NCBI GenBank assembly: GCA_963840035.1 | Contig: CAWIXE010000003.1 | Span: 96,001-160,000 of the forward strand | DNA from: a candidate division FCPU426 bacterium | GTDB lineage: Bacteria; Oederibacteriota; PGYV01; Palsa-1178 | DNA: 64,000 nucleotides | Direction of reading: 5' to 3' | Shown here: one piece after another, positions 10,342 to 61,033 of the stretch | Numbering within the stretch: position 1 is the stretch's first letter | How the letters are laid out: each line of letters begins with the position of its first letter | Position numbers and translations under genes: made by a program | The notes under the pieces: model-generated | What the model saw: only the letters and a program-made list of their open reading frames with translations | Told to the model about the DNA's origin: nothing | Databases searched by the model: none

Positions 10342-10404
10342 AGAGCCCAGAGCCCAAAGCTCAAGTGAAGGCATTTCCTTGGGCTATGAGCTCTGGGCTA
10401 TGGG
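10342..10404. repeat. Inverted heptamer array (AGAGCCC family)
   Basis: agagccc agagccc aaagctc aag / ctt gggctat gagctct gggctat. Confidence 0.9.
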
Positions 10405-10421
10405 ATTAAAAAAGGAGCTCC

Positions 10422-11177
10422 ATGAAACAACCAATAATATCCGTAACTGGCATTGTAAAAACCTACAGATCCGGCTTTATAAACCCGCGTATTACCAACG
10501 CCCTTCGCGGCATTGACCTTGACATACACGAGGGCGAGCTTTTTGGCGTGCTTGGGCCTAATGGCGCGGGCAAGTCAACGCTTTTAAACGTCATCATGGG
10601 GCTTATAACTCCTGATTCCGGATGCGTCATGATATCCGGCAATAAGACCTGCGGCATGTTTTCGCATGAGATACGCAACACCATGAACATGAGCTCGGGC
10701 AATCCTAATTATCCATGGGCATTGACCGTAAGGGAAGCGCTGAACTTTTACGGCATGTTGTATGGTTTGTGGGGCAAGAAACTAGATCATAAAGTGGATT
10801 ACCTGATAGACCTCATGGAACTTCAAAAATACGCCAATGTGCGTTTTGACGAATTATCCACGGGCACAAAGCAGCGCACGTCGATTGCCAAATCGCTATT
10901 AAATGAGCCGAAGATTCTGCTGCTTGACGAACCCACTTCAGGCATGGACCCGAACATATCGGTAAAAATAAGAAAAGTAATAAAACAGCTCCATAAGAAG
11001 ATGAAAATAACCATAATGCTCACCACGCATATCATGCGCGAAGCGGAGGAACTCTGCGGCAGGATAGCTTTCATAAAAGACGGGCAGATAGCGGCGCTGG
11101 GCACAAAGGAAAAAATAAAAAAAATGACATCGTCAAAAAACATGGAGGAGGCGTTCATTGAACTCGCAGCTGATTAG
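10422..11177 (+). CDS. ABC transporter ATP-binding protein
   Basis: GPNGAGKST, LSTGTKQR, LLLDEPT, TTH. Confidence 0.95.
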   Translation: MKQPIISVTGIVKTYRSGFINPRITNALRGIDLDIHEGELFGVLGPNGAGKSTLLNVIMGLITPDSGCVMISGNKTCGMFSHEIRNTMNMSSGNPNYPWALTVREALNFYGMLYGLWGKKLDHKVDYLIDLMELQKYANVRFDELSTGTKQRTSIAKSLLNEPKILLLDEPTSGMDPNISVKIRKVIKQLHKKMKITIMLTTHIMREAEELCGRIAFIKDGQIAALGTKEKIKKMTSSKNMEEAFIELAAD

Positions 11178-11940
11178 AATATACGCCTTTGCCTACAGGA
11201 ATTACATATTTGCCATAAGAAATTTTTTTACATTCGCGGAGATGTTGTTCTGGCCCATTATAGGCATACTTTCAATCGGGTTAATGGGCGGGTTCCTTTC
11301 GCTCAAAGGCGACATGATGTCATTTCTTTTGACAGGGGCCATCATGGCGGGCGTCTTTCAGACATCGCAACTTGACGTGGCATACGGCTTTCTCTATGAC
11401 GTGTGGTCCAAAAGCGTAAAGCAGACATTCATAGCGCCGGTTAAGAACATTGATTACATAATAGGCTCGTGGATCATCGGAACCGCAAGGGGAATCATCA
11501 CATTCTTCATGTTAGCCGCGCTTGCCATGCTCTTCTTTAAATTTACCCTGCCCGGAGCGGTTGTGCTTTGGATTTCGCTTTCAGGAGTATACCTTACAGC
11601 CATGATATCAGGGATGATGGTAATATTTTTCATATTCATGTTCGGCCAGAGGATAGACATCATAGCGTGGATGATATCGGCGTTAATGATGCTGCTGTGC
11701 GGCATCTACTACCCGGTAACATACCTGCCCGCGGTCTTCGCAAAAGTGGCGCAGTTCATCCCGCTGACATACTTCCTGGAATACTTCAGGACAGGCTACA
11801 ACTTCCCCCTGAACTTCACGCACCCGCTGCTTAAAGGCTACGGCCTTTCCGCAATATACATTGGCATTTTACTCTGGCTTATTGAGCTGGCGTTTTTAAG
11901 GGCGAAGAAGACCGGGATGCTGATACGACTAAGTGAGTAG
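11158..11940 (+). CDS. ABC-2 type transporter permease
   Basis: About 6 TM helices, GIYYPVTYLP, IPLTY; overlaps the ATPase gene. Confidence 0.88.
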   Translation: MNSQLIRIYAFAYRNYIFAIRNFFTFAEMLFWPIIGILSIGLMGGFLSLKGDMMSFLLTGAIMAGVFQTSQLDVAYGFLYDVWSKSVKQTFIAPVKNIDYIIGSWIIGTARGIITFFMLAALAMLFFKFTLPGAVVLWISLSGVYLTAMISGMMVIFFIFMFGQRIDIIAWMISALMMLLCGIYYPVTYLPAVFAKVAQFIPLTYFLEYFRTGYNFPLNFTHPLLKGYGLSAIYIGILLWLIELAFLRAKKTGMLIRLSE

Positions 11941-12048
11941 TGGGTGGTGAGTGGTGGGTAGCAGACAGTAGCGAACGTTGGTAGCCGCAGCCTTTAGGCT
12001 GCGATAGGCGGGATTTGCCCCTGTAGGGGCGGACCTATGTGTCCGCCC
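11934..12048. repeat. Repeat cluster: unpaired heptamer array plus two different GTAG REP-like hairpins
   Basis: tgagtag tgggtgg tgagtgg tgggtag; tggtagccgcagcctttaggctgcg; tgtaggggcggacctatgtgtccgccc. Confidence 0.78.
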
Positions 12049-12116
12049 GCAAGGCGGTGTTTTTGGTGTTGATGTTTGACCAAAGAGCGTGTAATATGTT
12101 AGGGTAATTAAGGCAA

Positions 12117-12193
12117 GGGCGCGTAACTCATTTGGTTAGAGTGCCAACCTCACACGTTGGAAGTAGTTGGTTCAAATCCAATCGCGCCCACCA
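12117..12193 (+). tRNA. tRNA-Val (anticodon CAC)
   Basis: Acceptor gggcgcg/cgcgccc, anticodon arm ccaac-ctCACac-gttgg, T-loop ggttcaaatcc, encoded CCA. Confidence 0.95.
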
Positions 12194-12215
12194 GGACTAA
12201 TAGAAAAAGCTAAAC

Positions 12216-12283
12216 AAGTTTTAAGTTTGAAGTTTTAAGATAATGCAATTACGGTTCAATCTTAAAACTTAAAACATCAAACT
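12216..12283. repeat. Inverted heptamer array (AAGTTTT family)
   Basis: aagtttt aagtttg aagtttt aagat / atctt aaaactt aaaacat caaact. Confidence 0.88.
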
Positions 12284-12315
12284 GTTTTTCATCTGATTTA
12301 AGGAGGTTTATTACC

Positions 12316-12426
12316 ATGGCAGACAATTGCGGATGCGGATGTTCCTGCGGCGGATCTATGAAGAAAGAAGCGGCGCCTAAGAAAAAAGTTGCGGCAAAGA
12401 AGAAAACCGTAAAGAAGAAGAAATAA
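12316..12426 (+). CDS. 36-aa protein, Cys-rich N-terminus and Lys/Ala-rich C-terminus (not in ORF track)
   Basis: aggagg at 12301; MADNCGCGCSCGGSMKKEAAPKKKVAAKKKTVKKKK*. Confidence 0.75.
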   Translation: MADNCGCGCSCGGSMKKEAAPKKKVAAKKKTVKKKK

Positions 12427-12436
12427 TATATAAAAC

Positions 12437-12537
12437 AGTTCGGAGGGTGGAGTTCGGGGTTCGGAGTTGGGATTAAACAGAACCCGGAACCGGAACGTTT
12501 TTATCCAACTTCGAACTCCGAACCCCGAACTCCGAAC
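12437..12537. repeat. Inverted heptamer array (AGTTCGG family)
   Basis: agttcgg agggtgg agttcgg ggttcgg agttgg / ccaact tcgaact ccgaacc ccgaact ccgaac. Confidence 0.9.
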
Positions 12538-12554
12538 GCTCTAAAGGAGTATTA

Positions 12555-14702
12555 ATGTTTGATGAAAAACCGTCTAAACCAGCTGCCATAGATTCCTCCA
12601 AACTCTTTAACATACGGGTTTGGGAGGGGATACAGTATAAGTTCGCAAAGGACTTAGGCATCGCGCTTAAGGTCATAAGTGAGGACGGCAAGATAAACAC
12701 CGAAGAATCCAATTTCAGCCCTTTCTTTAAACTCCTGATGTCCACCGAAGCCGGCCGCAAGATTTGCGAGATAAAGGCCGAGAACATCGACAGGGAAGCG
12801 CGGTTTGTCACGCTTTACGCGGACTGCACTTACTACTGCGCCACCACTTACTTCTACGGCAAGAAATTCAATATCCTCGTGGGCACAAAGGAAAGACCGC
12901 AGAATGAGGAACTTGTAAAGAAGCTCGCTGTGGACGCGGGCGTGGATTTTAATGAACTGCTCGCAGCTTATAAGGAAGTGCCTGAGTTTTCCGAAGAACG
13001 CCTTGTTAACGTAGCCGACCTCATAGTTGACCTTTTCAATATCGTCATCGAATTATCCGTCCAGGAATACATAACCCACATGGCTAATAAGGAAAAAGAA
13101 GAGGAAATAGCCAAGATGAGCGCCCTGATGGAAGCTTCCATTATCATTAATTCCACCAGGAACTTAGACCAGCTCTTAAAACTCATTATGCAGTCTGCCG
13201 AGAAGGTTATGCAGGCTGAAGCGTCATCGGTGTTCTTAATTGACAATGAGCGCAACGAGCTCTTTTTTGAAATAGCCACGGGCCCCAAGGAAGAGGAAGT
13301 ACAGAAGATAAGGCTGAAGATGGGCGAGGGCATCGCCGGATGGGTGGCTTATACAGGCGAGTCGCTGCTTGTGCCTGACGTGTCAAAGGACCCGCGTTTC
13401 GCGCGGCGCGTGGATGAGCAGACTCAGTTCATTACCCGCTCGGTTATCTGCGTTCCTTTAAAGGTGCGCAACCAGACCATCGGTGTGGTGCAGGTATTAA
13501 ATAAGATAGGCGGCGGAAATTTCTCAAAGACCGAGATAAAGTTCCTCGAGGCTTTAGCCTCACAGGCCGCCATCGCCATAGAGAACGCGAACTTATACGA
13601 GCATTTGGAAGAGCGCGCGGAGCAGTTAAATAAGGATTTAAAGAAAGTTAATGTAAACCTCTCGATTGAAAAACTAAGGATAGAATCCATCGTCCAGTCC
13701 ATGGAAGACGCTGTTATCGCCGTTGATTCAAACAAAAAGATGGTTATGATAAACAGGGTTGCCGAGCGCTTATTTGAGCTGGACTGGGACAGGGCCATGG
13801 AAAAACCCCTCGGGGACACCATGAAAAGCGGGGATATCATAAATAATTTCACTATGGTATTGAATGACAAGAAAATAACAAAGACAGAAGTAAAGCTGAT
13901 GATAGGCAATAAGGAGCATATCTTCGCGGCTGTCTTCGCGCCAATTATAGATGAAAAGGATAATACCGCCGGGTCAGTCGCGGTTTTCAGGGACATAACA
14001 GAGATAAAGGAACTCGACAAGATGAAGTCGGAGTTCTTGAACATGGTCTCGCACGAGTTAAGGACCCCGCTTACGCCCATACAGGCATACAGCGAGCTCA
14101 TGATGGTCAGGGACGTGGACTCGCAGAAGGTAAAGAAGTACGCGGATATCATAAACAAGGAAACCCAGAGGCTTGGCGCGCTCATAGGCGATCTGCTTGA
14201 CTTATCCAGGATTGACGCGGGCAAAGGCTTAAGCCTTACCCTTGAACCCATTGATTTTAACGAGCTTTTACATACGGTTTATGAGACATTTAAGAGCGCT
14301 TCGGTAAAGCACAAAATTATTTTGACACTGCCCGAGAAAAGTGAGATAATACTCGTTGACAGGAACAAAATGATACAGGTTCTCACGAACCTGCTGTCAA
14401 ATGCCCTGAAATACTCCCCTGAGGGTGGGGAAATTACCATAAGAGTCTGGGACGATGATAAGACATTGTATTTCAGCGTCAAGGACCAGGGGTTGGGAAT
14501 TGCCGGGGAAGACCTGGACAAGATATTCGACAAGTTCTACAGGGTGGAAAGCGAAAAGGTAAAAAAGATCGGCGGAACCGGAATAGGCCTTCCGATCGTC
14601 AAATACATACTTGAACTGCATAACGGCGGGGTTACGGTAAAAAGCGAGATAAACAAGGGAAGCGAATTCATATGCTACATACCAAAGGTAAAACAAAAGT
14701 AA
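12555..14702 (+). CDS. Soluble sensor histidine kinase (PocR-like, GAF, PAS, HisKA, HATPase)
   Basis: GEGIAGWVA..NK GAF; SHELRTPLT; NLLSNALKYS; DQGLG; GGTGIGL; PocR call is tentative. Confidence 0.9.
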   Translation: MFDEKPSKPAAIDSSKLFNIRVWEGIQYKFAKDLGIALKVISEDGKINTEESNFSPFFKLLMSTEAGRKICEIKAENIDREARFVTLYADCTYYCATTYFYGKKFNILVGTKERPQNEELVKKLAVDAGVDFNELLAAYKEVPEFSEERLVNVADLIVDLFNIVIELSVQEYITHMANKEKEEEIAKMSALMEASIIINSTRNLDQLLKLIMQSAEKVMQAEASSVFLIDNERNELFFEIATGPKEEEVQKIRLKMGEGIAGWVAYTGESLLVPDVSKDPRFARRVDEQTQFITRSVICVPLKVRNQTIGVVQVLNKIGGGNFSKTEIKFLEALASQAAIAIENANLYEHLEERAEQLNKDLKKVNVNLSIEKLRIESIVQSMEDAVIAVDSNKKMVMINRVAERLFELDWDRAMEKPLGDTMKSGDIINNFTMVLNDKKITKTEVKLMIGNKEHIFAAVFAPIIDEKDNTAGSVAVFRDITEIKELDKMKSEFLNMVSHELRTPLTPIQAYSELMMVRDVDSQKVKKYADIINKETQRLGALIGDLLDLSRIDAGKGLSLTLEPIDFNELLHTVYETFKSASVKHKIILTLPEKSEIILVDRNKMIQVLTNLLSNALKYSPEGGEITIRVWDDDKTLYFSVKDQGLGIAGEDLDKIFDKFYRVESEKVKKIGGTGIGLPIVKYILELHNGGVTVKSEINKGSEFICYIPKVKQK

Positions 14703-14717
14703 AAGGAGGCAAGAGAA

Positions 14718-15131
14718 ATGAGTGACCTGAAAAAGAAAATAGTGGTAGCTGACGACGAACCGTTCATACTCTCGGCATTGCAGGATACATTATCCGATTC
14801 TTACAGCGTAACCACGGCTTCAAACGGCGCCGAGGCCATTAAGGTTGTTCAGAAAGTGATGCCTGACCTCATCATTTTAGACGTCATGATGCCTGAAATG
14901 GACGGCTTAGAGGCGTGCAAAAACTTAAAAAGGGATAAAGTTACATCATCCATACCGGTAATTCTTTTAACGGCCAAGGGACAGATTACCGACATCGAAA
15001 AAGGGTTTAAGTCCGGCGCTGACGCGTATGTGGTAAAGCCCTTCTCACCGGCAAGGCTCATAGAAAAAGTAGAGGAAATATTCGAAAAAGTAGAGATGAG
15101 AAAAAAGATAATGGAAGACAAAAAGAAATAA
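14718..15131 (+). CDS. Single-domain response regulator
   Basis: VADDE, LDVMMPEMDG, LTAK, KPF. Confidence 0.95.
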   Translation: MSDLKKKIVVADDEPFILSALQDTLSDSYSVTTASNGAEAIKVVQKVMPDLIILDVMMPEMDGLEACKNLKRDKVTSSIPVILLTAKGQITDIEKGFKSGADAYVVKPFSPARLIEKVEEIFEKVEMRKKIMEDKKK

Positions 15132-15234
15132 AAGCCTCAGAAATCCCTCTCTTATCTCCCTTTCTGAAACAAAGGGAGACGATCGCTGGAGACACGATTA
15201 GCGTGGGAGACGGAAGGGAATTCGAAAGATATGT

Positions 15235-15264
15235 AAAACCCCGTGAAAATCGGGGTTTTATTTT
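15235..15264 (+). terminator. Rho-independent terminator
   Basis: aaaaccccg-tgaaaat-cggggtttt followed by T-rich tail. Confidence 0.8.
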
Positions 15265-15319
15265 ATGTTAGTAAGTGAAATATATCACAAGCAAGGGTAA
15301 ATTATTCAAAAATTTAATA

Positions 15320-15350
15320 TTGACATTTAAGTCATAGTTTGTTATATATT
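15320..15350 (+). promoter_or_regulatory. Sigma70-type promoter of the serine operon
   Basis: TTGACA, 17 bp, TATATA with TG upstream. Confidence 0.6.
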
Positions 15351-15399
15351 ATAGCAAGATAGTTCAAAATTTCACAATCTATTGAGGAGGTATTGGAAA

Positions 15400-16554
15400 A
15401 TGAGGAAAAAATACATCATGGCACCAGGCCCGACAGAAGTACCGGCAGATGTTTTAGTCGAAGCAGCAAAACCCGTAATGCACCACAGGACGCCGCAGTT
15501 CAGGAAGATCCTAACTGAAGTCCTGGACGGCATGAAGTACGTTCTCGGCACAACAAGGAATGTTTACCTTATGGCCTCTTCAGGAACAGGCGCCATGGAA
15601 ACAGCGATGGCAAACCTCGTTAACGCGGGCGATAAGATAATAGTAGGAACCATCGGCGCTTTCGGCGACAGGTGGGAAAACCTCGGAAAAGCATACGGCG
15701 CTACCATGGTAAAGATAGCCCCTGAGTGGGGATATGCCATAAAGCCGGAAGAGATCAAAAAGGCGCTCGACGCGAACCCGGACGCTACCGCGGTTTTTGT
15801 CCAGCTTAATGAAACATCAACGGGAGTATACAATGATATAGAAGCAATCGGTAAGATCGTAGCCGCCTCCAAAGCAGTCCTCGTGGTTGACGGCATATCC
15901 GGCATAGGAGCCCAGCCTTTCTACATGGACAAGTGGCTGGTCGACTGCATAGTGGTAGGATCGCAGAAAGGCTTAATGATACCGCCGGGGCTCGCTTACG
16001 TTGCCTGCAGCGAAAAAGCCTGGAAACTTGTGGAAACAAACAAGACACCTAAATTTTACTTTGACCTGAAAAGGTATGAGAAGGCCCTTACAAAGGAAAA
16101 AATGCCGGATACCCCGTGGACATCCGCCGTTTCCCTTATAATGCAGCAGGCTGTTGCGCTGCGCATGATAAAGGAAGAGACCAACGAGAAGATCTGGGAA
16201 CGCCACGCAATCCTTTCAAAATCAGTGCGCGAAGGCATTAAGGCGCTCGGCCTTGAGCTCTTCGCGAAAGAAAACCCGGCGGTAGTGCTGACATCGGTTG
16301 TCGCGCCGCAGGGCATAGACACAAAGGTCCTTATGAAAAAAATACGCGACGAGTACGGCATATCCATGGCAGGCGGACAGGGCAAGATGGAAGGCCTGAT
16401 ATTCAGGATAGGCACACTCGGGTATACGGACAGGTTTGACGCTGTGATGGGAATGGCCGCGACCGAAATGGCATTGAAAGACATGGGCGCGAACATCGAG
16501 ATAGGAAAAGGCGTAAAGAGGACGATGGAAGTACTGATGGCGGAGTATAAATAA
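15400..16554 (+). CDS. Class V PLP aminotransferase (serine-pyruvate/alanine-glyoxylate type, probable SerC substitute)
   Basis: MAPGPT, HHRTPQF, SSGTGAME, NETSTG, GSQKGLMIPPG; directly upstream of serA. Confidence 0.9.
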   Translation: MRKKYIMAPGPTEVPADVLVEAAKPVMHHRTPQFRKILTEVLDGMKYVLGTTRNVYLMASSGTGAMETAMANLVNAGDKIIVGTIGAFGDRWENLGKAYGATMVKIAPEWGYAIKPEEIKKALDANPDATAVFVQLNETSTGVYNDIEAIGKIVAASKAVLVVDGISGIGAQPFYMDKWLVDCIVVGSQKGLMIPPGLAYVACSEKAWKLVETNKTPKFYFDLKRYEKALTKEKMPDTPWTSAVSLIMQQAVALRMIKEETNEKIWERHAILSKSVREGIKALGLELFAKENPAVVLTSVVAPQGIDTKVLMKKIRDEYGISMAGGQGKMEGLIFRIGTLGYTDRFDAVMGMAATEMALKDMGANIEIGKGVKRTMEVLMAEYK

Positions 16555-16582
16555 AAATCATGACCAATAGGGGAGGTATTAC

Positions 16583-18172: not shown

Positions 18173-18198
18173 AGACAAGAGATAAGAGACAAAAGACA
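18171..18198. repeat. Unpaired heptamer array (AGAGACA family)
   Basis: agagaca agagata agagaca aaagaca, overlapping the serA stop. Confidence 0.8.
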
Positions 18199-18200
18199 GG

Positions 18201-18230
18201 AGGCGGGCAAAAATGCCCGCCTTTTTGTTT
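18201..18230 (+). terminator. Rho-independent terminator
   Basis: aggcgggca-aaaa-tgcccgcct then tttt. Confidence 0.85.
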
Positions 18231-18256
18231 GTGTGGTTTGGCAATTGACGGATCTT

Positions 18257-18295
18257 CCCCCCTCTCCCTCTATGGGAGAGGGATGGGGTGAGGGT
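18257..18295. repeat. CCCTCTCCC/GGGGTGAGGG palindromic element (single arm)
   Basis: ccctctccctctatgggagagggatggggtgaggg; relative at 63198. Confidence 0.72.
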
Positions 18296-18452
18296 GCCGC
18301 AGCGGCACAAACTACTGCATTACCTCCAGTCATGTATGCCCGCCCGCACCGTGCCTGTTTAATATGTATTTAATTAACCCTACCTAATGTTAAACTTGAT
18401 TTTGGCAGTAGGGATGATAAGATGAATATATAAAGGATTGAAAGGGGAAATT

Positions 18453-21115: not shown

Positions 21116-21208
21116 AAACAGCCATTGTTTGTCATAAAAGCAATACGCGAAGGGCAGAGGCCGTATTTGGCATATAAGGGGCGCAAGCTGCTGTTTTAAG
21201 GAGCGGGT

Positions 21209-28444: not shown

Positions 28445-28527
28445 ATGCCACCTCATTGTGTATTGTATTTCATCTTTAAAACATTGAATAATATTAAAGT
28501 AAAGCGTGGGATTTGTAAATAGTTTTT

Positions 28528-28620
28528 AATGTGAATTTTAGATTTTCAATTTTAGATTTTCAATTGCGGACGGACTAAGGCATGTTTTTAATTGAAAATT
28601 GAAAATTCAGAATTGAAAAT
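28528..28620. repeat. Inverted heptamer array (AATTTTC/GAAAATT family)
   Basis: gattttc aatttta gattttc aatt / aattgaa aattgaa aattcag aattgaa. Confidence 0.85.
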
Positions 28621-28630
28621 GGATTAAAAC

Positions 28631-30097: not shown

Positions 30098-30200
30098 GTC
30101 TCAATGATCTCAGTGGTCTCAGAAATCTCAAAAGGGAAAGGCAAAGTCGCGTTAGTTTTCCGGCTATTGAGATTATTGAGACTTTTGGGATTATTGAGAC
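30098..30200. repeat. Inverted nonamer array
   Basis: gtctcaatg atctcagtg gtctcagaa atctcaa / ttgagatta ttgagactt ttgggatta ttgagac. Confidence 0.88.
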
Positions 30201-30763: not shown

Positions 30764-30866
30764 ATTTTATATTTTAGATTTTAAATTTTAGATTTAAGGT
30801 GTGCTTCGCACTTTATGATAAAAGACGAAACCTTAAATATAAAATTTAAAATATAAAATCTAAAAT
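30764..30866. repeat. Inverted heptamer array (ATTTTAG family)
   Basis: attttat attttag attttaa attttag atttaagg / ccttaaat ataaaat ttaaaat ataaaat ctaaaat. Confidence 0.9.
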
Positions 30867-31716: not shown

Positions 31717-31789
31717 AGTCCCAAGCCCCAAGACTCATGACCCAAGTGAAGGCTTTCCACTTGAGTCATGGGTCCTGGGTCATGAGACT
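31717..31789. repeat. Inverted heptamer array (TGACCCA family)
   Basis: agtccca agcccca agactca tgaccca agtg / cact tgagtca tgggtcc tgggtca tgagact. Confidence 0.92.
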
Positions 31790-32734: not shown

Positions 32735-32806
32735 ATAGCTCAGAGCCCAGAGCCCAAAGCTCAAGGGAATGCTCCTCCTTGGGCTATGGGCTTTGGGACA
32801 TAGGCT
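32735..32806. repeat. Inverted heptamer array (AGAGCCC family)
   Basis: atagctc agagccc agagccc aaagctc aagg / cctt gggctat gggcttt gggacat. Confidence 0.9.
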
Positions 32807-35418: not shown

Positions 35419-35632
35419 AACAGCCTCCTGAAATAGAGTTATTAGCTTAAAGTTTAAATGTCCGGCGTCGTGGTTGTGGTTGTTACAACTTCAAACCTGT
35501 AACCCTAGACTTTAAACACGCAGCCTTATATAATAATGAAGAAGCGTTTGCATAAGGCCTTAAACAGCTTATTTACCAATAAGCAAAAGGATTATATAGG
35601 AATGGGTCGGAATTGTCAAACGGGAAAAAGCC

Positions 35633-35727
35633 GATTTTCAATTTGAAATTTTCAATTTTCAATTAAAAACAAGGCGTTTTATTGTTTTGTGCTTAATTAA
35701 AAATTTAAAATAGAAAATTCAAAATTG
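35633..35727. repeat. Inverted heptamer array (AATTTTC family)
   Basis: gattttc aatttga aattttc aattttc aattaa / ttaatt aaaaatt taaaata gaaaatt caaaatt. Confidence 0.82.
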
Positions 35728-35787
35728 GTTTTATCTTGATTTATATGGTAATTTAATATATATTATCTTCACTTACAGGAGGCACGC

Positions 35788-36825: not shown

Positions 36826-36921
36826 GATTCTGAATTCTGGATTCTAAATTTTGGATTAAAATAACCGGGACTAAAGCTGGGGTTTATATATCTAATGTCT
36901 AATATCGCATATCAAATATCA
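36826..36921. repeat. Degenerate pair of heptamer arrays
   Basis: gattctg aattctg gattcta aattttg; aatgtct aatatcg catatca aatatca (poorly complementary). Confidence 0.6.
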
Positions 36922-42708: not shown

Positions 42709-42713
42709 GATAT

Positions 42714-42816
42714 AGTCCCAGGACCCAAGACTCATGACCCAAGTCAGCAAAAACACAAATGCATAAACAAAGACATTAGGTTGTGATTTTTGACTTGGGG
42801 CTTGGGTCATGGGGCT
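42714..42816. repeat. Inverted heptamer array (TGACCCA family)
   Basis: agtccca ggaccca agactca tgaccca agtca / tgact tggggct tgggtca tggggct. Confidence 0.9.
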
Positions 42817-42821
42817 TGTGT

Positions 42822-43022
42822 CTAATTTGCACTACAAATCACCATCCCCTTATTCCTGTAATTATTCCCGGTTATGGCGTCCTCGGGGTCGCCCAGGACC
42901 TGATCGGAAAAATCAGAGGAAAAATCGCCGGGGTAGGGATCCCACATATTCAGGTCACTTATGAAAATGACATTCTTTATGTCCTTTATCTTCATCTTAA
43001 ACATGGCCACTTTTACCTTCAT
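42822..43022 (-). CDS. Small hypothetical protein (66 aa)
   Basis: aaggagg 8 nt before ATG; no competing long ORF. Confidence 0.6.
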   Translation of the reverse strand: MKVKVAMFKMKIKDIKNVIFISDLNMWDPYPGDFSSDFSDQVLGDPEDAITGNNYRNKGMVICSAN

Positions 43023-45396: not shown

Positions 45397-45402
45397 GAAA
45401 AC

Positions 45403-45462
45403 AAAGCCCAAAGCCCAGAGCCCAAGGTTGCCTTGAGCTCTGGGCTATTCACTTTGGGCTAT
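45403..45462. repeat. Inverted heptamer array (AGAGCCC family)
   Basis: aaagccc aaagccc agagccc aagg / cctt gagctct gggctat. Confidence 0.88.
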
Positions 45463-49914: not shown

Positions 49915-49916
49915 AG

Positions 49917-50567: not shown

Positions 50568-50611
50568 AAACGTAAATTTAAGGCTGGGATAAAAATATAA
50601 AGTGAGGAAAA

Positions 50612-53079: not shown

Positions 53080-53138
53080 GATTTTAAATTGCGGTTTGTG
53101 GTAATATGGAATTAATGCTGTGATAGTAACAAGTTTGT

Positions 53139-53245
53139 TGTCATTGCGAGGAGCCGTTTTTGTTTCACGGCGACGAAGCAATCTTGTCAAAAACAGCGGG
53201 ATTGCTTCGTCGGCATGGATCTGAAGGCGCCTCCTCGCAATGGCA
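53139..53245. repeat. GTCATTGCGAG palindromic element
   Basis: tgtcattgcgaggag..cgacgaagcaatc..gattgcttcgtcg..ctcctcgcaatggca. Confidence 0.92.
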
Positions 53246-53308
53246 CGGTTTATTTGTTGCAACAGGCAGAAAAGAAGCATAAAACTGATTGGTGCGCGGA
53301 GGTTTTGA

Positions 53309-54595: not shown

Positions 54596-54596
54596 T

Positions 54597-54680
54597 AAAC
54601 TTGAAACTTAAAGCTGAAAACTGAAAATTAGAACGGATTGTCTTAGTCTCAACTTTAAGTTTTCAATTTTAAACTTTAAG
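54597..54680. repeat. Inverted heptamer array (AAACTTA family, degenerate)
   Basis: aaacttg aaactta aagctga aaactga / ttaagtt ttcaatt ttaaact ttaag. Confidence 0.75.
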
Positions 54681-54698
54681 ATAAAACGAGGTGTAAAG

Positions 54699-54977
54699 AT
54701 GTCAAAGAACAAAAACAAAGAAACAAAGCAGGCTGCGCCGGTAAAAGAGGGCGGGGAGTTTACTTTTAAGGATTACTTTTATGTGAACCTGATGTTCTGG
54801 GGATTCCTCCTCGTGGTGGCGCTTATTGTATATTTTACCGCCGGCGCGAAATGGGATCCGATCATGCAGAATGTTTTTACATTCATATTCCTGGTTTTCG
54901 GGTTAGGATTTACGGGTGTCTCGGTATTTGACGCCATCTATGAAAAACTTTCAAAAGGCAGCGCTGATGAGAAATAA
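54699..54977 (+). CDS. Small two-TM hypothetical protein
   Basis: gaggtg RBS; two hydrophobic helices. Confidence 0.75.
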   Translation: MSKNKNKETKQAAPVKEGGEFTFKDYFYVNLMFWGFLLVVALIVYFTAGAKWDPIMQNVFTFIFLVFGLGFTGVSVFDAIYEKLSKGSADEK

Positions 54978-55716
54978 GTTTTTCATCATAGCGGCGCTTC
55001 TTTTATCCGCGGCGGCAATTAACGCGGAGACCATGATCTTAGAGGATGAGTCACCAAGGCAGGCCCCGGTACCCGGAGCCACAGCCGTAAAAACGGCGGT
55101 TGTTAAGCCTGCTGCCACGGCGGCTATTCAGCCTGCGCAGGTAAAACCGGCAGTTACAGCGGCAGTACAGCCCACACAGGTGAAACCCGCCCCAACGGCC
55201 CAGCCGACGCAGTTTCCGGCCGAGGATTTAAAGCCGAGGATTGAAGCGCTTAAGAATTCGCTAGATGCCATAAAAACCCAGGCAGAGGCAAACGCGGCGC
55301 TGGTAAAGGAAATGCAGGAGAATCTGAAAAAGGTTGAATCGCGTTCGCTGGAAACCCAGACCACCGTGGAAAACCTCGACCTGCTTAAGTCAAAAGTTCT
55401 TACCCTTGAGGAAAAGGGCTCGGAAACACGCGCGTCCATAGAAAAATATTCGAAGGATTTTGACTCCATGAAAGAATCGGTAAAGTCAAACGTGGATAAA
55501 CTGCAGGGATGGAACGACATACTTGAAGTCCTTAAAAAACAGATAAATGACAATGAACTTGAGGTCGCCAAAATAAAAAAGACCATAAATGACGTAAAAG
55601 GCAAATACGGCGACCAGGATGAGAACATGTTCAGTTCCATTCTGAAATGGCCGTATGCCGGTTTCACGGCGCTGGTGATTTCGATAGTGGCTTTAAGCGT
55701 GGCGATAGCGAAGTAA
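54967..55716 (+). CDS. Exported protein with P/T/A-rich repeats, coiled coil and C-terminal membrane anchor
   Basis: Signal peptide MRNKFFIIAALLLSAAAINA; VKPA..TA..QP.Q x3; heptad region; terminal TM. Confidence 0.78.
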   Translation: MRNKFFIIAALLLSAAAINAETMILEDESPRQAPVPGATAVKTAVVKPAATAAIQPAQVKPAVTAAVQPTQVKPAPTAQPTQFPAEDLKPRIEALKNSLDAIKTQAEANAALVKEMQENLKKVESRSLETQTTVENLDLLKSKVLTLEEKGSETRASIEKYSKDFDSMKESVKSNVDKLQGWNDILEVLKKQINDNELEVAKIKKTINDVKGKYGDQDENMFSSILKWPYAGFTALVISIVALSVAIAK

Positions 55717-55740
55717 GGTGTGATGAAGCGGGATTAAGGC

Positions 55741-55807
55741 AGTTTTAAGTTTTTAGTTTTAAGATAGGTCTTCAACATCTTAAAACTTAAAACTTAAAAC
55801 TTAAAAT
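55741..55807. repeat. Inverted heptamer array (AAGTTTT family)
   Basis: agtttt aagtttt tagtttt aagat / atctt aaaactt x3 aaaat. Confidence 0.92.
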
Positions 55808-55827
55808 CTGTGTTTAAAGGAGCAAAA

Positions 55828-56689
55828 ATGCCGTTTAGCATGACCGGTTGGGGGACTTACAGGGCTGGAAAATATACCATTAACTTAAAGGGGCTTAATT
55901 CAAAATATAAGGAAGTGGTGCTTCACCTGCCTCAGGAATTCTTTGAGGCTGAGCCGTATATATATAAATTTCTCAATGACAGTGTGACCCGCGGCAGGGT
56001 GGACATGTTTGTGAACCTTGACAAGAGCAACCTTCAAAAACACGTCCATGTAAATGAAGGGTTGTTTAAGGAGGCATATGCTTCACTGACGAAACTCATG
56101 AAAAAGTCAAAGATAAAAGGCGAGATACCGGTACAGACCGTGCTCAATTCGGTGGAAGGCATCATCATGGTAAAGGACGCCGAAGCAAAGGACTCTTTCT
56201 CGTGGAAAAAGATAAAACCCGCGGTAGAGGCGGCATTGGCGGATTTCATGAAAATGAAGGAAAAGGAAGCGCAGGGCCATGTGGCGGACATAGAAGAAAG
56301 GCTTGCTATAATAGAAAAAGAGACCGAGAAGCATAAAAAAGATGTATGTTGATTTCAAGGAAGAATACATAATCAAGACAAGAGAACGTCTTGAGGTTGT
56401 AATGGCCAAGGAAAACAGGCAGGGATTTTTAAATACAGAGGCTGTCGAAGTCCTGGATAAATACAACATAACCGAGGAACTCGTAAGGATAGGCTCGCAT
56501 GTAAAACAGGCGTTGTCGATATTAAAATCACCGGCCGCGGGCAGGAAACTTGATTTTCTTGCCCAGGAGTTTTACAGGGAAGCAAACACCATCGGCTCCA
56601 AGATAAACAACGCTAAGATAGCGCACGCGGTAATAGTGCTGAAAGAAAATACGGAAAAGATCAGGGAACAGGCGATGAATCTCGAATAA
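55828..56689 (+). pseudogene. yicC: YicC/YloC endoribonuclease family, split by a 1-bp frameshift near 56335; may be an assembly error
   Basis: SMTGWG, RGRVD; +1 frame continues ITEELVR, GRKLDFLAQEFYREANTIGSK, EKIREQAMNLE. Confidence 0.85.
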
Positions 56690-56775
56690 AATTACCAATT
56701 ACTAATGACTAATTACCAATAAAGTACAGGTAATCCCGCAGTTTATTGGTAATTAGTAATTGGTAATTAGTAATT
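56690..56775. repeat. Inverted heptamer array (AATTACC family)
   Basis: aattacc aattact aatgact aattacc aataaa / tttatt ggtaatt agtaatt ggtaatt agtaatt. Confidence 0.93.
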
Positions 56776-56789
56776 ACGCGGAGGTAATT

Positions 56790-57065
56790 TTGCTGTTGAA
56801 TGTAGGCTTTGACAACGCGGTTGTAATCGACAGGATTATTGCCATAATCGATGTAAGTTCAACACCCGTGAAAAGGATGATAGAGGACGCCAGGAAAAAT
56901 TTTCTTCTGGTGGACGCGACCCACGGCAAGAAAATAAAGTCGGTTGTTGTGATGGATTCAAACCACTGTGTTTTATCGGCGATACTGCCGGAAACGCTTA
57001 TCTTAAGATGCGGCAACAGGGATAAACAGCCTGATAAAAAAATAAAGGAACCGGATAAAAAATGA
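56790..57065 (+). CDS. remA: RemA/DUF370 family protein
   Basis: LNVGFDN, RIIAI, VDATHGKK, LSAILPET; sits between yicC and gmk; TTG start assumed. Confidence 0.85.
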   Translation: MLLNVGFDNAVVIDRIIAIIDVSSTPVKRMIEDARKNFLLVDATHGKKIKSVVVMDSNHCVLSAILPETLILRCGNRDKQPDKKIKEPDKK

Positions 57066-57643
57066 AGAACAAGGGAATAGTATTCGTTGTTTCCGCCCCT
57101 TCCGGGACAGGGAAAACAACGGTAATAAACGAATTTCTCCGTACTCATAAGAGCGATTTTACGGTGTCTGTTTCCGTAACCACCAGGCATCCGCGCGCCG
57201 GCGAGGTTGACGGCAGCCATTATTACTTTTTTACAAAGGAAAAGTTCAGGGAATACGTCAAAAAGGGCAGGTTTCTGGAATACGCGCCGGTCCTTGATAA
57301 CTATTATGGCACCTTAAAATCTACGGTTATAAAGTCCACTGTGGCCGGAAAAAATGTTATAATGGACATTGACGTGCAGGGAGCCAGGCAAATAAAGGCA
57401 AAAATGAAGGATTGCGTAACGGTATTTATCATACCCCCTTCCTTCAGGGTTTTGGAGAAAAGGCTCAAAGGCCGCAAGACGGAAACAGCTGAAAACATTA
57501 GGAAAAGGCTCAATCTGGCAAAAAAAGAATTGAAAGAACGCGGAAAGTATGATTATATAATAATGAACCAGGACCTTAAGGAGGCTACCGGATACCTGGA
57601 GGCTATATACGCTTTGGAGCGGTTTAAGAGGTACGTAGTTTAG
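57062..57643 (+). CDS. gmk: Guanylate kinase
   Basis: SAPSGTGKTT, TTRHPRAGEVDG, YYGT, DIDVQGA. Confidence 0.96.
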   Translation: MKNKGIVFVVSAPSGTGKTTVINEFLRTHKSDFTVSVSVTTRHPRAGEVDGSHYYFFTKEKFREYVKKGRFLEYAPVLDNYYGTLKSTVIKSTVAGKNVIMDIDVQGARQIKAKMKDCVTVFIIPPSFRVLEKRLKGRKTETAENIRKRLNLAKKELKERGKYDYIIMNQDLKEATGYLEAIYALERFKRYVV

Positions 57644-57646
57644 CAG

Positions 57647-57760
57647 GTCATTGCGAGGAGGCGTTTTAGCTATTTGCCGACGAAGCAATCCTGCTGTTGT
57701 AATACGTAAAAAGCGAGATTGCTTCGTCGCCATGGATCTAAGGCGGCTCCTCGCAATGAC
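57647..57760. repeat. GTCATTGCGAG palindromic element inside an operon
   Basis: gtcattgcgaggagg..cgacgaagcaatc..gattgcttcgtcg..ctcctcgcaatgac. Confidence 0.92.
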
Positions 57761-57816
57761 AGACTTTGAAATCACAGGCTGGCGGTCAAACCGCGGCTAA
57801 AACTGAAGGAGCACAT

Positions 57817-58044
57817 ATGAAAAAGTTTGATTTTACAATTCAGGACCTGAAATCCAAGATCGGAAACAAGTACGCCGCTGTTATCATCATTGCCGCAAGG
57901 GCAAAGGCCATAAGGGAAAATCCGGCCGATGTAGATGAGACAGACAGGAAGAAAAAAGCCACCGTAACTGCGGTTAAAGAGTTCTTAAACGACAAGATTA
58001 AGTTCCCTGAATTTGACCTTGAAAAAATAAACATCGGGGATTAA
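57817..58044 (+). CDS. rpoZ: RNA polymerase omega subunit
   Basis: NKYAAVIIIAARAK, KATVTAVKE; gmk-rpoZ-coaBC synteny. Confidence 0.85.
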   Translation: MKKFDFTIQDLKSKIGNKYAAVIIIAARAKAIRENPADVDETDRKKKATVTAVKEFLNDKIKFPEFDLEKINIGD

Positions 58045-58051
58045 ACCTAAT

Positions 58052-59244
58052 ATGACACGCGTTGTCCTCGGCATTACAGGCGGGATAGCCGCGTACAAGA
58101 CCCCGGACCTCGTAAGGATGCTCACGGGGGACGGCATTGAGACCCTGTGCGTCATGACAAAGGAAGCCAGGGAATTTGTAACGCCGCTTACATTGCGTAC
58201 CTTGTCAGGCAATCCGGTTTTTGAAGACATGTTCTTTGAGTCCAAAAACCCGGGCTCAAACGTCACCCATATAGGCCTTGCGCAGAACTGCTCCCTTATC
58301 ATCATTGCCCCGGCTACGGCTAATGTTATCGGAAAGATAGCCAACGGCATCGCGGACGACCTTTTAACCACCACTGTAATGGCCACGGACAAGAAAGTGC
58401 TTATAGCCCCGGCCATGAACACCAAAATGTGGGAAAACCCGATAGTCAGGCAGAATGTTGAAAAGCTGAAAAAACTCGGGTACATATTCATAGGCCCGGG
58501 CAAAGGCGAGCTTGCCTGCGGCGATTACGGCGACGGGCGCATGGAAGAACCGGGAAAAATATTTGAGAAAGCAAAGTCATTATTAAAAAAAAAATAGCTG
58601 ACACTTCCAGCCCGAAAAAAACAATACTCATAACCTCCGGGGCCACCCGCGAGTATATTGATTCAGTCCGTTTTATTTCAAACCCTTCATCCGGAAAAAC
58701 CGGTTATTACCTTGCCATGGAAGCGGTATCGCGCGGATATAAGGTGATATTCATAACCGGCACATCGGGCGCCAGGCCTGAGGGCGCTGACGTAGTGGAA
58801 ACGGAATCAGCTGCGGACATGTTCGCCGCTGTGATGGAAAATTATAAAAAAGCCGACATCATCATAGGCGCCGCTGCAGTCGGGGATTTTACGGCAGACA
58901 GGGCAGCCGGCAAGATAAAAAGAAAAGGCGCTATGACACTGGAATTAAAACCCACCAAAGACATTATGGCCGCAGTCGGCAAAAAGAAGGGACGCCGGGT
59001 GCTCGTGGGTTTTTCCGCTGAAGCCGGGCATATGCGCGGCGAGGCAATCAGGAAAATATCCGCAAAGAACCTCGACATGGCGGTCTTTAACGACATTACT
59101 AAAAAAGGCGCCGGGTTCGGGTCTGACAACAATGAGATTGAGATAATAGGCAGGGACGGAAAAAAACTTTACAAAGGCGCCGGACCCAAGAGCAAGCTGG
59201 CCGGGATAATACTTGATTTTGCCGGAAAGGCCGGATTAAAATGA
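58052..59244 (+). CDS. coaBC: Bifunctional CoaBC with frames disjoined at an A10 run (58585-58594)
   Basis: GITGGIAAYK, APATAN, PAMN, LACGDYG; -1 frame continues ITSGATREYIDSVRFISNPSSG, AAAVGDF, VGFSAE. Confidence 0.88.
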
Positions 59245-60902
59245 AAAAAACAGCCCTTCTGATAATGTTAATGTTCATGGCGGGAGCGGTTTTCTGCGCT
59301 GCCAATAAAGTATCGGGGCTTCCAAAGCACGGCGGGGAAGTGCTGGTAATTTATAAAAATGTTTTCAGCGAGGCGGACATAAGCGGTTTCCTGAAGAACC
59401 ACCCTTCAAAAGATGCTTCAAGAGTTTCAATTATTTCAACATTTGAAAACTATTACGGCCTGACAAAACAGCCGGATCCGCAGGGGAATACCCTTTTTGT
59501 CCGTTATAAAATAGCTGACCCCGGCGCAATGGACACGGTTTTATCAGCGCTTAAATCAGAGGCATTAGTGGCGGATGCCCAGCCTAATTTTATCAGGCAC
59601 GCGCTTTATATGGGGGATTACCCGTTAATCCCGGGCGGGCCGAATGATACTTTCTATCAGAATAAAAACCAGTGGGGTTTCTCGCAGGTAAGGGCTGATA
59701 AAGCTTTTGCAGCGGGGCTTATACCATTCACGGCATCTCCCGTAAAAGTTACGGTGGCTGTCCTGGATACAGGTATTTATTTCAACCATGTGGATTTGAT
59801 AGGAGTGACCGTAACCGGCAGGAACATACTCTCGCCAGGAGATGAACCCCTTGACGATGATACAGGTTCAAGGGGAGGCCATGGAACGAGGCTTTCCGGC
59901 ATCATAGCGGCAAACACAAATAATAGCGGAATAGGGATAGCCGGTTCGGCATACTGTAATGTAACTTGGACAAGCAGGGTAGTTATAATGCCGGTTAAAG
60001 TACTGGACGCTACCGGCTCTGGCACTGATTCTGACATATATGAGGGAATAGTGTGGGCTGTGGACAACGGAGCAAAGGTCATAAATTTGAGCCTTGGCAG
60101 CCCTGATGGCGGAATAATACTGCAGACAGCCGTTAATTACGCGTACGACAATAATGTGGTGGTCGTGGCGACCACAGGCAATGACGCGTCGCAGACATTT
60201 TTTCCCGCGGGATACTCGACCGTCATCGCAGTAGGCGCGACTGACCTTGTTGCCGATATAAACGGAAATACGCATGATATCAGCGCTGATTTTTCCAACT
60301 TCGGCAAGGTTGACGTGTCGGCGCCCGGCGTGGATATTAAAAGCTGTATGAACAGTTCCACAACTTCCTATAGTGTGCTGGGGGACATGTCTTCGGACGG
60401 AACATCATATGCTTCGCCGTTTGTAGCGGGCTTAGCCGGACTCATACTGTTAAAGTATCCCGGATTAAACCCCGGGGAAGTAAGGGATATAATAACAAAA
60501 ACAAGCGACGACGCCGGAGCTGCCGGGTATGATAAATACTTTGGCTGGGGCAGGGTTAACTTTTACAGGGCCCTGACACTGGACAAAAAGATGAATATAA
60601 ATCCGTCAATTAAAACATTCAACTGGCCCAACCCCTTCTCCCCGGAAATGGAAGGGTTTACAAACATCGTATTTATCCCTGAAAAAGCCGGCAACATAAA
60701 AATTACCATTTATGACGGCGGCGGGGATGTGGTCTGGGAAAATGATATAAACAGCGGCGCCGTAACGCCGGGCGCGTATAATACCGTCAAATGGGACGGC
60801 CTTAATAAGGAAGCCAGAAAAGTTGCGAACGGAACATATTTTTATGTGGTAAAGCAGGGAAGCGGTTTATTCGGGAAAAACAAGATAACGGTACTGCATT
60901 AA
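59241..60902 (+). CDS. S8 subtilisin-like protease with FlgD-Ig/T9SS-CTD-like C-terminus
   Basis: VAVLDTG, HGT, NLSLG, GTSYASP; NWPNPFSP...WDG...NGTYFY. Confidence 0.9.
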   Translation: MKKTALLIMLMFMAGAVFCAANKVSGLPKHGGEVLVIYKNVFSEADISGFLKNHPSKDASRVSIISTFENYYGLTKQPDPQGNTLFVRYKIADPGAMDTVLSALKSEALVADAQPNFIRHALYMGDYPLIPGGPNDTFYQNKNQWGFSQVRADKAFAAGLIPFTASPVKVTVAVLDTGIYFNHVDLIGVTVTGRNILSPGDEPLDDDTGSRGGHGTRLSGIIAANTNNSGIGIAGSAYCNVTWTSRVVIMPVKVLDATGSGTDSDIYEGIVWAVDNGAKVINLSLGSPDGGIILQTAVNYAYDNNVVVVATTGNDASQTFFPAGYSTVIAVGATDLVADINGNTHDISADFSNFGKVDVSAPGVDIKSCMNSSTTSYSVLGDMSSDGTSYASPFVAGLAGLILLKYPGLNPGEVRDIITKTSDDAGAAGYDKYFGWGRVNFYRALTLDKKMNINPSIKTFNWPNPFSPEMEGFTNIVFIPEKAGNIKITIYDGGGDVVWENDINSGAVTPGAYNTVKWDGLNKEARKVANGTYFYVVKQGSGLFGKNKITVLH

Positions 60903-60920
60903 AGTGCGTATGAGAAAAAG

Positions 60921-61033
60921 AGAGACAAGAGACTGGAGACTGGAGTAAAAATGAAAACTAAAGAAATAGCAGCAAAAGTAGTTGATGTTTTTTTTGCATT
61001 TATCCTTACTCCTGTCTCCAGTCTCCTGTCTGC
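60921..61033. repeat. Inverted heptamer array (GGAGACT family) overlapping a gene start
   Basis: agagaca agagact ggagact ggagtaa / ttactcc tgtctcc agtctcc tgtct. Confidence 0.88.

Follow-up and report, generated by a model that had tools for sequence, protein, structure and literature searches.

Our results suggest that the period-7 hairpins scattered over the genome of an FCPU426 bacterium are likely gene-less copies of a mobile PF05635/TIGR02436 (four-helix-bundle) cassette, spread after stop codons, whose arms are predicted sites for a protein pentamer. That hairpins and gene-filled cassettes belong to the same class of element seems to us very likely, and there are good grounds for thinking that the hairpins spread as elements; the predicted binding of the arrays by the pentamer we would put at an even chance. 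The first-pass annotation of this DNA had offered two readings, mRNA processing or stability elements and empty sites of a small mobile cassette. The latter is supported by the shared arms, by the filled, empty and bare states of the same junctions and by unit switching in relatives. The former was not borne out, since the G-U excess of the stems tracks the replication strand, the free positions of the units are uncompensated and a given junction does not keep its hairpin from genome to genome.

Hairpins of the window

The window is a stretch of 64,000 nt (contig CAWIXE010000003.1 of assembly GCA_963840035.1, positions 96,001 to 160,000), and site coordinates count from its start. At all 15 sites listed earlier, 3–5 imperfect 7-nt units are indeed followed by a loop and by the mirrored array, one site (36826) being decayed. 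Our detector recovered 14 of the 15; at 36826 the right arm is decayed and the fold z is +0.7, against –2.4 to –9.9 at the other 14. Two further sites were found, a tandem element at 37–236 and a period-9 hairpin at 30098–30200. Four sites need correction: 12216 follows tRNA-Val instead of a stop codon, the genes on either side of 28528 and of 35633 are divergent, and those beside 42714 are convergent. An Rfam search of the window matched the tRNA alone. The sites are:

37..236, no strand: tandem (BIME-like) element, family 5 (ACCCTTA); a single left arm with several right arms; absent from the earlier list
10341..10402, + strand: hairpin, family 3 (AGCCCAA); stop codon 1 nt upstream, ABC ATPase gene 19 nt downstream
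12212..12287, + strand: hairpin, family 6 (TTTTAAG); about 20 nt past tRNA-Val
12438..12537, + strand: hairpin, family 10 (GTTCGGA); 11 nt past a 36-codon ORF (12316–12426)
28524..28629, no strand: hairpin, family 0 (TTTCAAT); divergent aconitase and TetR-like genes on either side
30098..30200, no strand: period-9 hairpin, GTCTCAATG type; convergent stop codons on either side; 13 in the genome; absent from the earlier list
30764..30866, – strand: hairpin, family 12 (ATTTTAG); fumarase alpha/beta junction
31717..31789, – strand: hairpin, family 7 (ACCCAAG); mdh/fumarase alpha junction
32735..32806, – strand: hairpin, family 3 (AGCCCAA); icd/mdh junction; different units or none in relatives
35627..35732, no strand: hairpin, family 0 (TTTCAAT); divergent genes on either side
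36826..36916, + strand: decayed hairpin, GATTCTG type; clear left arm, degenerate right arm
42713..42824, no strand: hairpin, family 7 (ACCCAAG); convergent genes; stop codon 4 nt upstream
45402..45456, + strand: hairpin, family 3 (AGCCCAA); 5 nt past the PPi-phosphofructokinase stop codon
54597..54680, + strand: hairpin, family 2 (AACTGAA); directly past the UDP-glucose dehydrogenase stop codon
55741..55801, + strand: hairpin, family 6 (TTTTAAG); 5΄ of yicC
56690..56775, + strand: hairpin, family 11 (AATTACT), a family also present in genome G002; yicC/remA junction, 0 nt past the stop codon
60918..61036, + strand: hairpin, family 1 (GAGACAA); 15 nt past a subtilase-like gene

Abundance and placement in the genome

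A sensitive scan of the whole genome gave 399 raw and 353 filtered hairpins, and none in each of three shuffles; its period-6 count, unfiltered, was 110. In a strict scan, 187 inverted pairs were found at period 7 and 0–28 at each of the remaining periods from 4 to 12, with none in two shuffles. Nearly all hairpins (349/353) are intergenic, gene calls being those of a simple in-house caller that missed some short or atypical genes. The proposed nearness to stop codons holds genome-wide: a stop codon lies at most 15 nt before the start of 232 of the 295 co-directional hairpins, and in roomy spacers this is the case for 48/86 where 8.8 would be expected. The proposed nearness to the next ribosome-binding site, in contrast, proved to be geometry only (10/86 in roomy spacers against 15.1 expected), so the hairpins are not anchored on that site; the Shine-Dalgarno sequence starts at a median of 7 nt past the right arm. 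Among lone arms, a stop codon adjoins 150/169 of the left type and 14/90 of the right type. No such anchoring on stop codons is seen in the genome's other palindromic repeats (15/85, 0/26 and 1/29). As had been noted for the window, U-tails are rare: tail-like ends occur in just 34/295 co-directional hairpins, which does not fit intrinsic terminators.

The stop codon TGA is rarer before hairpins (17/224 against 206/1399) and TAG is unchanged, and we do not claim a link to release factors. Arms also pair over long range around rplU or atpF-atpH; we set these pairs aside as probable chance pairings of common arms.

Four-helix-bundle genes between the same arms

The first-pass annotation mentioned, without an example in the window, that similar arrays flank TIGR02436 genes. 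This is the case in the genome: of its eight TIGR02436 genes three, at loci L001, L006 and L007, are enclosed by heptamer arrays in inverted orientation (families 8, 2 and 10), with the PF05635 ORF in the loop, and the window sites are without such an ORF. Each of the three cognate proteins is paired with a family of 14–29 gene-less sites, and the window site at 12437 shares 31 + 19 identical nt with the arms of the L007 cassette, the 31 nt lying in its left arm. In this genome, gene-filled copies are confined to three of the roughly 15 families. The intact ORFs found inside matched arms belonged to four-helix-bundle genes or IS30-like insertions, apart from two arm pairs that enclose ordinary genes and may be chance pairings. 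No four-helix-bundle remnant was present in the 83 loops of at least 45 nt, and the loops are unlike cassette interiors; a simple internal deletion is therefore not supported as the origin of the gene-less copies.

To our knowledge, no catalytic activity has been ascribed to a PF05635/TIGR02436 four-helix-bundle protein. The genome, which is 98% complete, has no RVT_1 match and no PDDEXK_3 (GxxExxY) match, and no mobilising enzyme for the hairpins was found in this analysis. The solved relatives 2GSC and 2RLD hold five chains per entry; a residue-to-base scan gave no code beyond the main subfamily split.

Orthologous junctions in relatives

Orthologous junctions were found filled, empty with a different unit, or bare in relatives. 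In genome G015 a gene-filled cassette stands in the place of what is here an empty hairpin of another unit, G008 has one where this genome holds a lone left arm, and G019 and G020 have one between two genes that overlap in this genome. Between pyrC and carA this genome has about 545 nt, and the spacing is –4 to 47 nt in 16/16 relatives with pyrC found upstream. The icd/mdh junction carries a hairpin in about 8/19 relatives, as read by eye; the junction after yicC does so in 3/21. Metagenome contigs held no close relative, the best mdh match being 76%. No clear target-site duplication was seen, although old copies could have lost one: 4- to 8-mers shared by the two flanks occur at 313, 158, 63, 18 and 10 of the 353 hairpins, against 303, 156, 54, 14 and 4 in mismatched controls.

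Architecture of the units and arms

That units differ between sites and recur at distant loci holds throughout the genome, where the hairpins fall into about 15 families of fixed polarity (reversed in 7/3260 within-family pairs). Within a unit about five positions are fixed and two are free. At one free position C occurs 121 times, A 101, G 40 and T just 4, and the adjoining positions are fixed at 97–98%. The free positions are not mirrored between the arms: in family 0 (n = 63) agreement was 0.548 with the own arm and 0.552 across hairpins (p = 0.60), and the anchored test gave p = 0.60, 0.96, 0.07 and 0.51 in four families, the fifth having too few copies. A whole-arm test (0.695 with the own partner against 0.636, n = 294) and in-register identity (0.815 against 0.727 with a 7-nt shift) are biased because the arms were delimited by the same alignment, and we relied on the anchored test for that reason. 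Among 708 arms, 263 have four units, 214 five, 10 six and 6 seven or more; the limit of five is less sharp under a looser threshold, which gives six units in 94/706 arms, and among cassettes from other phyla, where 16/82 period-7 arms have six or more. The arrays have family-specific inner ends, and some are long perfect expansions. The loops are mostly unique (31 have a 14-mer in common with another loop; 211 are at least 20 nt long), without the conserved interior of a MITE. Of 62 units, 60% have a purine-purine-pyrimidine-pyrimidine core in common where chance would give 43%, a weak signal because the rotation was chosen to fit.

Beside the 7-base arrays there are 8-base and 9-base versions, and the period follows the protein clade. 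In other phyla, period-8 arms were found, as predicted, at 10 of 13 close relatives of the period-8 clade (one of the ten being the query locus itself and two near-copies), and period 7 at none; 69 other loci had period 7 in 41 cases and period 8 in 3. On the tree, period 8 requires 7 changes against 16.4 when shuffled. Gene-less period-8 hairpins also occur in genomes holding this clade (G012, G022 and G023). Period and clade are inherited together in the cassette, so their match is no proof of recognition. Hairpin density rises with the number of four-helix-bundle genes (21 genomes, Spearman 0.62, kin not being independent), yet G008 has 7 genes and 1 hairpin in 72.5 kb. In the sample of the phylum 31/74 genes are armless, including a whole 18-member clade, with which a search of viral contigs gave no matches. 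Taken together, the unmirrored free positions, the rarity of more than five units and the period that follows clade suggest, at the level of sequence, arrays of pentamer binding sites instead of selection for perfect pairing.

Proposed mechanism and alternatives

We propose that gene-less copies would spread by inserting directly behind stop codons, where they may be tolerated because the next Shine-Dalgarno sequence lies outside the stem. In each arm four to five binding sites would follow one another, one unit per pentamer subunit, and the inserting enzyme is probably a host factor or supplied in trans. When transcribed, the arms would form a stem of 25–40 bp with a mismatch at about every unit, probably an RNase III substrate by analogy with the Coxiella 23S intervening sequence. 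More tentatively, PF05635 pentamers might provide recognition for mobile elements of a class not yet described, a ring reading about five units and the clade setting a period of 7, 8 or 9; the ring would then direct the cassette and its gene-less copies behind stop codons, probably via an RNA step.

An unlikely alternative is that the stems are host-domesticated mRNA elements, RNase III sites or REP-like ribosome-stalling stems that cut, stabilise or uncouple polycistronic mRNA after the stop codons of core genes, with the four-helix-bundle protein a regulator or passenger. The start within 15 nt of a stop codon (232/295) and the Shine-Dalgarno sequence at a median of 7 nt past the right arm would suit such a role, as would the higher coding scores of genes upstream of hairpins and the RNase III gene found in the genome; RNase III cuts the Coxiella stem (PMC4990558), and tmRNA action is set off in other bacteria by stems that lie within 15 nt of a stop codon (PMC5009743). 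Presence, however, is not conserved at icd/mdh (about 8/19, by eye) or after yicC (3/21), and the free positions lack compensation. Nor did we accept the G-U bias as proof of selection on RNA, since it tracks the replication strand: G-U against A-C pairs number 323:241 where the sense strand is leading and 13:17 where it is lagging, the two effects being told apart by just 18 hairpins; at divergent junctions the leading strand shows 40:20, and folding energy has the same pattern. A use in mRNA can also hold as a secondary one.

It is less probable still that the arrays are by-products of replication, built by 7-nt slippage and mirrored by template switching, kept where harmless and merely entered by four-helix-bundle genes. 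The widespread, unexplained heptamer excess (PMC4692102), the mostly unique loops, the long perfect expansions and the IS30-like elements inserted in arms speak for this, but template switching would give mirrored variants, which are absent here, and slippage leaves unexplained the fixed polarity, the family-specific inner ends, the drop after five units, the base exclusion at free positions and the clade-linked period. Least probable, in our opinion, is that a resident transposase, for instance RAYT or IS30, moves the hairpins at the DNA level as ordinary MITE or REP elements. Eight Y1 transposase matches exist in the genome, the families are dispersed with terminal inverted arrays, and unmirrored free positions would suit two DNA binding-site arrays; yet the Y1 genes, read by eye, are flanked by GTAG-type or other palindromes of their own and by no heptamer arrays, their repeats are not anchored on stop codons, no target duplication is clear, and the intact ORFs in matched arms are those listed above.

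Comparison with known systems

In the published literature we found just the parts of this system, namely heptamer repeats and the Coxiella 23S intervening sequence. Cyanobacterial STRR are intergenic heptameric repeats, and our arrays resemble repeats of this and the GGGAATC type in being tandem, 7-nt, intergenic, strand-oriented near gene ends and partly in inverted pairs. Heptamers are described between genes in Xanthomonas (GGGAATC, with 70–75 inverted pairs) and Nostoc (GGGGA(C/T)T) (PMC4692102) and in Beggiatoaceae (TAACTGA) (PMC4679880). There one unit dominates per genome, against about 15 here, and the accessible parts of these reports mention no protein partner, cassette or filled/empty polymorphism (PMC4692102, PMC4679880); 'helix bundle' and '23S' are absent from the available Beggiatoaceae text (PMC4679880).

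The Coxiella burnetii 23S intervening sequence, which encodes S23p, forms a 28-bp stem from terminal inverted repeats, cut by RNase III; it has a variable number of tandem heptamers before a PF05635-family ORF in the loop and is sporadically distributed (PMC4990558). Our elements share the terminal inverted repeats with heptamers, the long stem and, at L001, L006 and L007, the PF05635-family gene in the loop. Unlike it, they lie in mRNA spacers past stop codons, not in rRNA (no hairpin is within 2.5 kb of the single 23S motif found in the genome), and of the hundreds present nearly all lack a gene; they make up about 15 unit families, and period-8 and period-9 forms occur as well.

REP, BIME and REPIN elements with their RAYT have a conserved 20–40 nt palindrome with a GTAG-type tag, which also flanks the RAYT gene. 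The hairpins are likewise dispersed non-autonomous palindromes, often close behind stop codons, with tandem mosaics and insertion-sequence hits, and they are linked to a single gene family that has these repeats on its flanks. Their arms, however, are periodic arrays, the linked protein is a helical pentamer-former without known catalytic activity, and the RAYT-like repeats of this genome are a separate set, heptamer arms flanking the four-helix-bundle genes. From MITEs they differ in having neither a clear target-site duplication nor a conserved interior. Avd of the diversity-generating retroelements is a homologous pentameric barrel that binds an RNA stem-loop through all five protomers (PMC10053308, 10.1101/2023.10.23.563531), with flipped-out bases between protomers (10.1101/2023.10.23.563531); unlike those retroelements, this genome gave no reverse transcriptase match, and adenine mutagenesis was rejected as the source of variation since many unit adenines are invariant.

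Our analysis adds to the first-pass annotation the fixed and free unit positions, the lack of mirroring at the latter, the rarity of arms with more than five units, the 8- and 9-base forms and the 8-base arms predicted from clade. If our broader proposal is true, a single system would account both for the rRNA intervening sequences and for the excess of heptamers in the intergenic DNA of bacteria. Two old puzzles, that excess and the role of the large PF05635 family, become jointly testable: the genome offers cognate protein/array pairs and a sharp binding prediction, namely five units, positions that are either fixed or free, and a period that goes with the clade. Should the stems be processed, mRNA processing sites would make up about 11% of the co-directional junctions here (295/2608).

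Results

The hairpins are real and occur genome-wide. In the 3.46-Mb, 98% complete genome (G000) whose contig C3 carries the window, a strict scan detected 902 period-7 arrays and 187 inverted pairs; the remaining periods between 4 and 12 gave 0–28 pairs each, and two shuffles gave none. A sensitive scan returned 399 hairpins, 353 once overlaps and weakly periodic arms were dropped, and zero in three shuffled genomes. The 15 sites of the first-pass annotation are inverted period-7 arrays as claimed, the one at 36826 being decayed; the sensitive scan missed this site, recovered the other 14/15 and, with a period-9 scan, added two to the window:

37-236, tandem BIME-like element of family 5 (sensitive scan)
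30098-30200, period-9 hairpin (period-9 scan)

The hairpins fall into about 15 unit families of 8–69 copies each. Median arm and loop lengths are 32 and 22 nt. Polarity is fixed within families (reversed in 7/3260 pairs), inner ends are fixed per family, and the loops are mostly unique in sequence. Within a unit about five positions are near-invariant and two are free. The largest family has three positions fixed at 97–98% and another that reads C in 121, A in 101, G in 40 and T in 4 units; since neutral decay from C should yield T, this base looks to be excluded there. Family 5 (ACCCTTA) also forms BIME-like tandem mosaics built of arms with a constant spacer:

Window 37-330
G000 C1:277702-278951
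G000 C1:370619-371303

Loops of families 11 (AATTACT) and 12 (ATTTTAG) often hold a TTATTATAAT-like motif amid GC-rich short palindromes (e.g. window 30800-30830), with TATAAT on either strand in 8/13 and 7/11 loops, respectively; the motif may be either a nested repeat or an internal promoter.

Gene positions were the output of our own simple gene caller. Of the 353 hairpins, 295 separate co-directional genes, 28 convergent and 26 divergent ones, and 4 fall within called genes. In the co-directional set, 232/295 start within 15 nt of the upstream stop codon and only 34/295 have U-tail-like ends, in agreement with the earlier statement that most lack a U-tail. The first-pass annotation had noted many hairpins beginning close to a stop codon and ending just before the next RBS. 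Where the spacer leaves at least 80 nt of slack (n=86), the distance to the stop is at most 20 nt in 48 against 8.8 expected, which upholds the former, and that to the next start is at most 35 nt in 10 against 15.1 expected, which does not support the latter. Because there is a stop excess but no start excess, the upstream gene end is the anchor, and proximity to the next RBS is a consequence of the spacers being short. Lone arms, of the same polarity as the hairpins, abut stops in 150/169 left-type versus 14/90 right-type cases. A hairpin lies within 60 nt downstream of 7/46 tRNA or tmRNA genes. The leading strand carries about 85–95% of genes genome-wide, and GC skew switches clearly on C1 and C2.

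The link to four-helix-bundle (TIGR02436) genes, which the first-pass annotation had only suggested, now has direct examples: among the genome's 8 matches, L001, L006 and L007 are enclosed by inverted heptamer arrays belonging to families 8, 2 (AACTGAA) and 10 (GTTCGGA), respectively, four have no arms, and one has longer composite inverted repeats:

G000 C2:219362-219685, L002, four-helix-bundle gene, ~48-nt units upstream and ~36-nt units downstream

Window site 12437 has 31 nt in common with the left arm of L007 and 19 nt with the right. With relatives included, 74 such genes were compared; arms were of period 7 in 23, period 8 in 4, period 9 in 4, period 13 in 1 and other inverted repeats in 11, and absent in 31, including an 18-row clade that is wholly armless. 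L003, L004 and L005 belong with relatives to this clade. Several of its members are neighbours of tRNA genes, or of one and the same glycogen-synthase-like gene, and upstream of L005 stand tandem period-8 hairpins. A related gene was also seen on two near-identical viral contigs, where it is flanked by arms of the family-9 type known from this genome.

In one four-helix-bundle clade the best period is 8 in 6/7 members. With an alignment of these members as prediction query across several phyla, 13 close matches (one a query locus, two near-copies) had period-8 arms in 10, period 9 in 1 and none in 2, and 69 other loci (four from a different query) had period 7 in 41 and period 8 in 3; 2 more at contig edges were left out. 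Gene-less period-8 hairpins with matching units occur in genomes carrying this clade. Since gene and arms travel together, the match of period and clade indicates co-inheritance, not recognition, and a residue-to-base scan gave no signal beyond the main subfamily split. The same period-8 cassette (L231 and L055) was seen in the same-order relative G020 and in a Spirochaetia-titled record, which are probably one genome under two labels.

At orthologous junctions filled, empty with another unit, and bare states were all found. By eye, icd|mdh holds a hairpin in about 8/19 syntenic relatives, in a variety of 7- or 9-nt units, and is bare in the rest; 3' of yicC a hairpin is present in 3/21 relatives, that of G002 being of this genome's family. 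The pyrC|carA spacer, here filled by the 545-nt L001 cassette, measures -4 to 47 nt in 16/16 relatives with pyrC upstream. A gene-filled cassette stands in G015 at the place of an empty hairpin of a different unit here, in G008 where this genome keeps a lone arm, and in G019 and G020 between two genes that overlap here. In 20-kb mdh windows hairpins occur in 8/8 genomes with at least five TIGR02436 genes and 0/12 with three or fewer; over 21 genomes (7–138 kb per relative, kin being non-independent) hairpin density and gene number have a rank correlation of 0.62, with G008 as exception. In AT-rich genomes, noise accounts for some of the period-8 and period-9 calls.

Discussion

We consider it reasonably likely that the hairpins belong to a cassette family whose gene-less copies would have spread to positions just behind stop codons, each arm serving as a predicted array of sites for a four-helix-bundle pentamer. 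TRAP offers an analogy: it wraps a periodic strand in which some positions are fixed and others free. Relatives with solved structures have five chains per entry, and arms seldom exceed five units (five in 214 and six in 10 of 708 arms; with looser matching, n=706, the mode is five and six were counted in 94); in the period-9 family arms are longer (median 39 nt) yet hold at most five units. The Coxiella paper (PMC4990558) cites Xcc0516 as a homopentamer, and an Avd study describes flipped-out bases held between the five Avd protomers (10.1101/2023.10.23.563531). No reverse transcriptase match was found in the genome, and no four-helix-bundle gene remnants in hairpin loops. RNase III is present in the genome, which makes putative processing of the stems by it plausible.

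That the hairpins are domesticated mRNA elements seems unlikely. G-U exceed A-C pairs on the leading strand regardless of transcription direction, and the excess is absent in the 18 cases with the sense strand lagging; these counts and the concordant folding energies give no sign of selection for RNA-strand pairing, the separating sample of 18 being small. Origin as slippage by-products is less probable still. Three-unit strings number 99 distinct among 130 arms; at free positions of the largest family (n=63) arms resemble their own partner (0.548) no more than they do other copies (0.552), so there is no mirroring, and three smaller families gave p=0.96, 0.07 and 0.51.

An ordinary MITE or REP is the least credible reading. 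The hairpins behave as an intervening sequence or a REP-type element does, yet from each of 23S IVS, REP, MITE and terminator they differ in at least one of the features by which membership was judged. No clear target duplication was seen at the hairpins, the genome's Y1 transposases carry their own repeats, and three further types of palindromic repeat found in it show little or no stop-anchoring (15/85, 0/26 and 1/29). RAYT-like Y1 transposase genes (L170, L172, L174 and L175) are flanked by GTAG-type REP palindrome arrays, a repeat system separate from the heptamer hairpins. Comparison drew on PMC4990558, PMC4679880 (Beggiatoaceae), PMC4692102 (Xanthomonas), PMC10053308, 10.1101/2023.10.23.563531 and PMC5009743; in the literature searched, with most subscription papers outside it, no paper joined intergenic heptamer hairpins to PF05635 cassettes.

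yicC (window 55810-56689) and coaBC (window 58052-59244) each appear as two ORFs, with the break near adenine runs, and pyrB and atpH are apparently split elsewhere; all four probably reflect indel errors of a long-read assembly, not true breaks. A 36-codon ORF at window 12316-12426, flanked by two hairpins, has a CGCGCSCG motif and a lysine-rich tail. Some heptamer elements are interrupted by insertions that, judged by their sequence, are IS30-like:

G000 C2:827229-828452, IS30-like element
G000 C3:228225-229414, IS30-like element
G000 C2:388072-389232, IS30-like element

One IS30-like element is inserted into family-11 arms at two loci.
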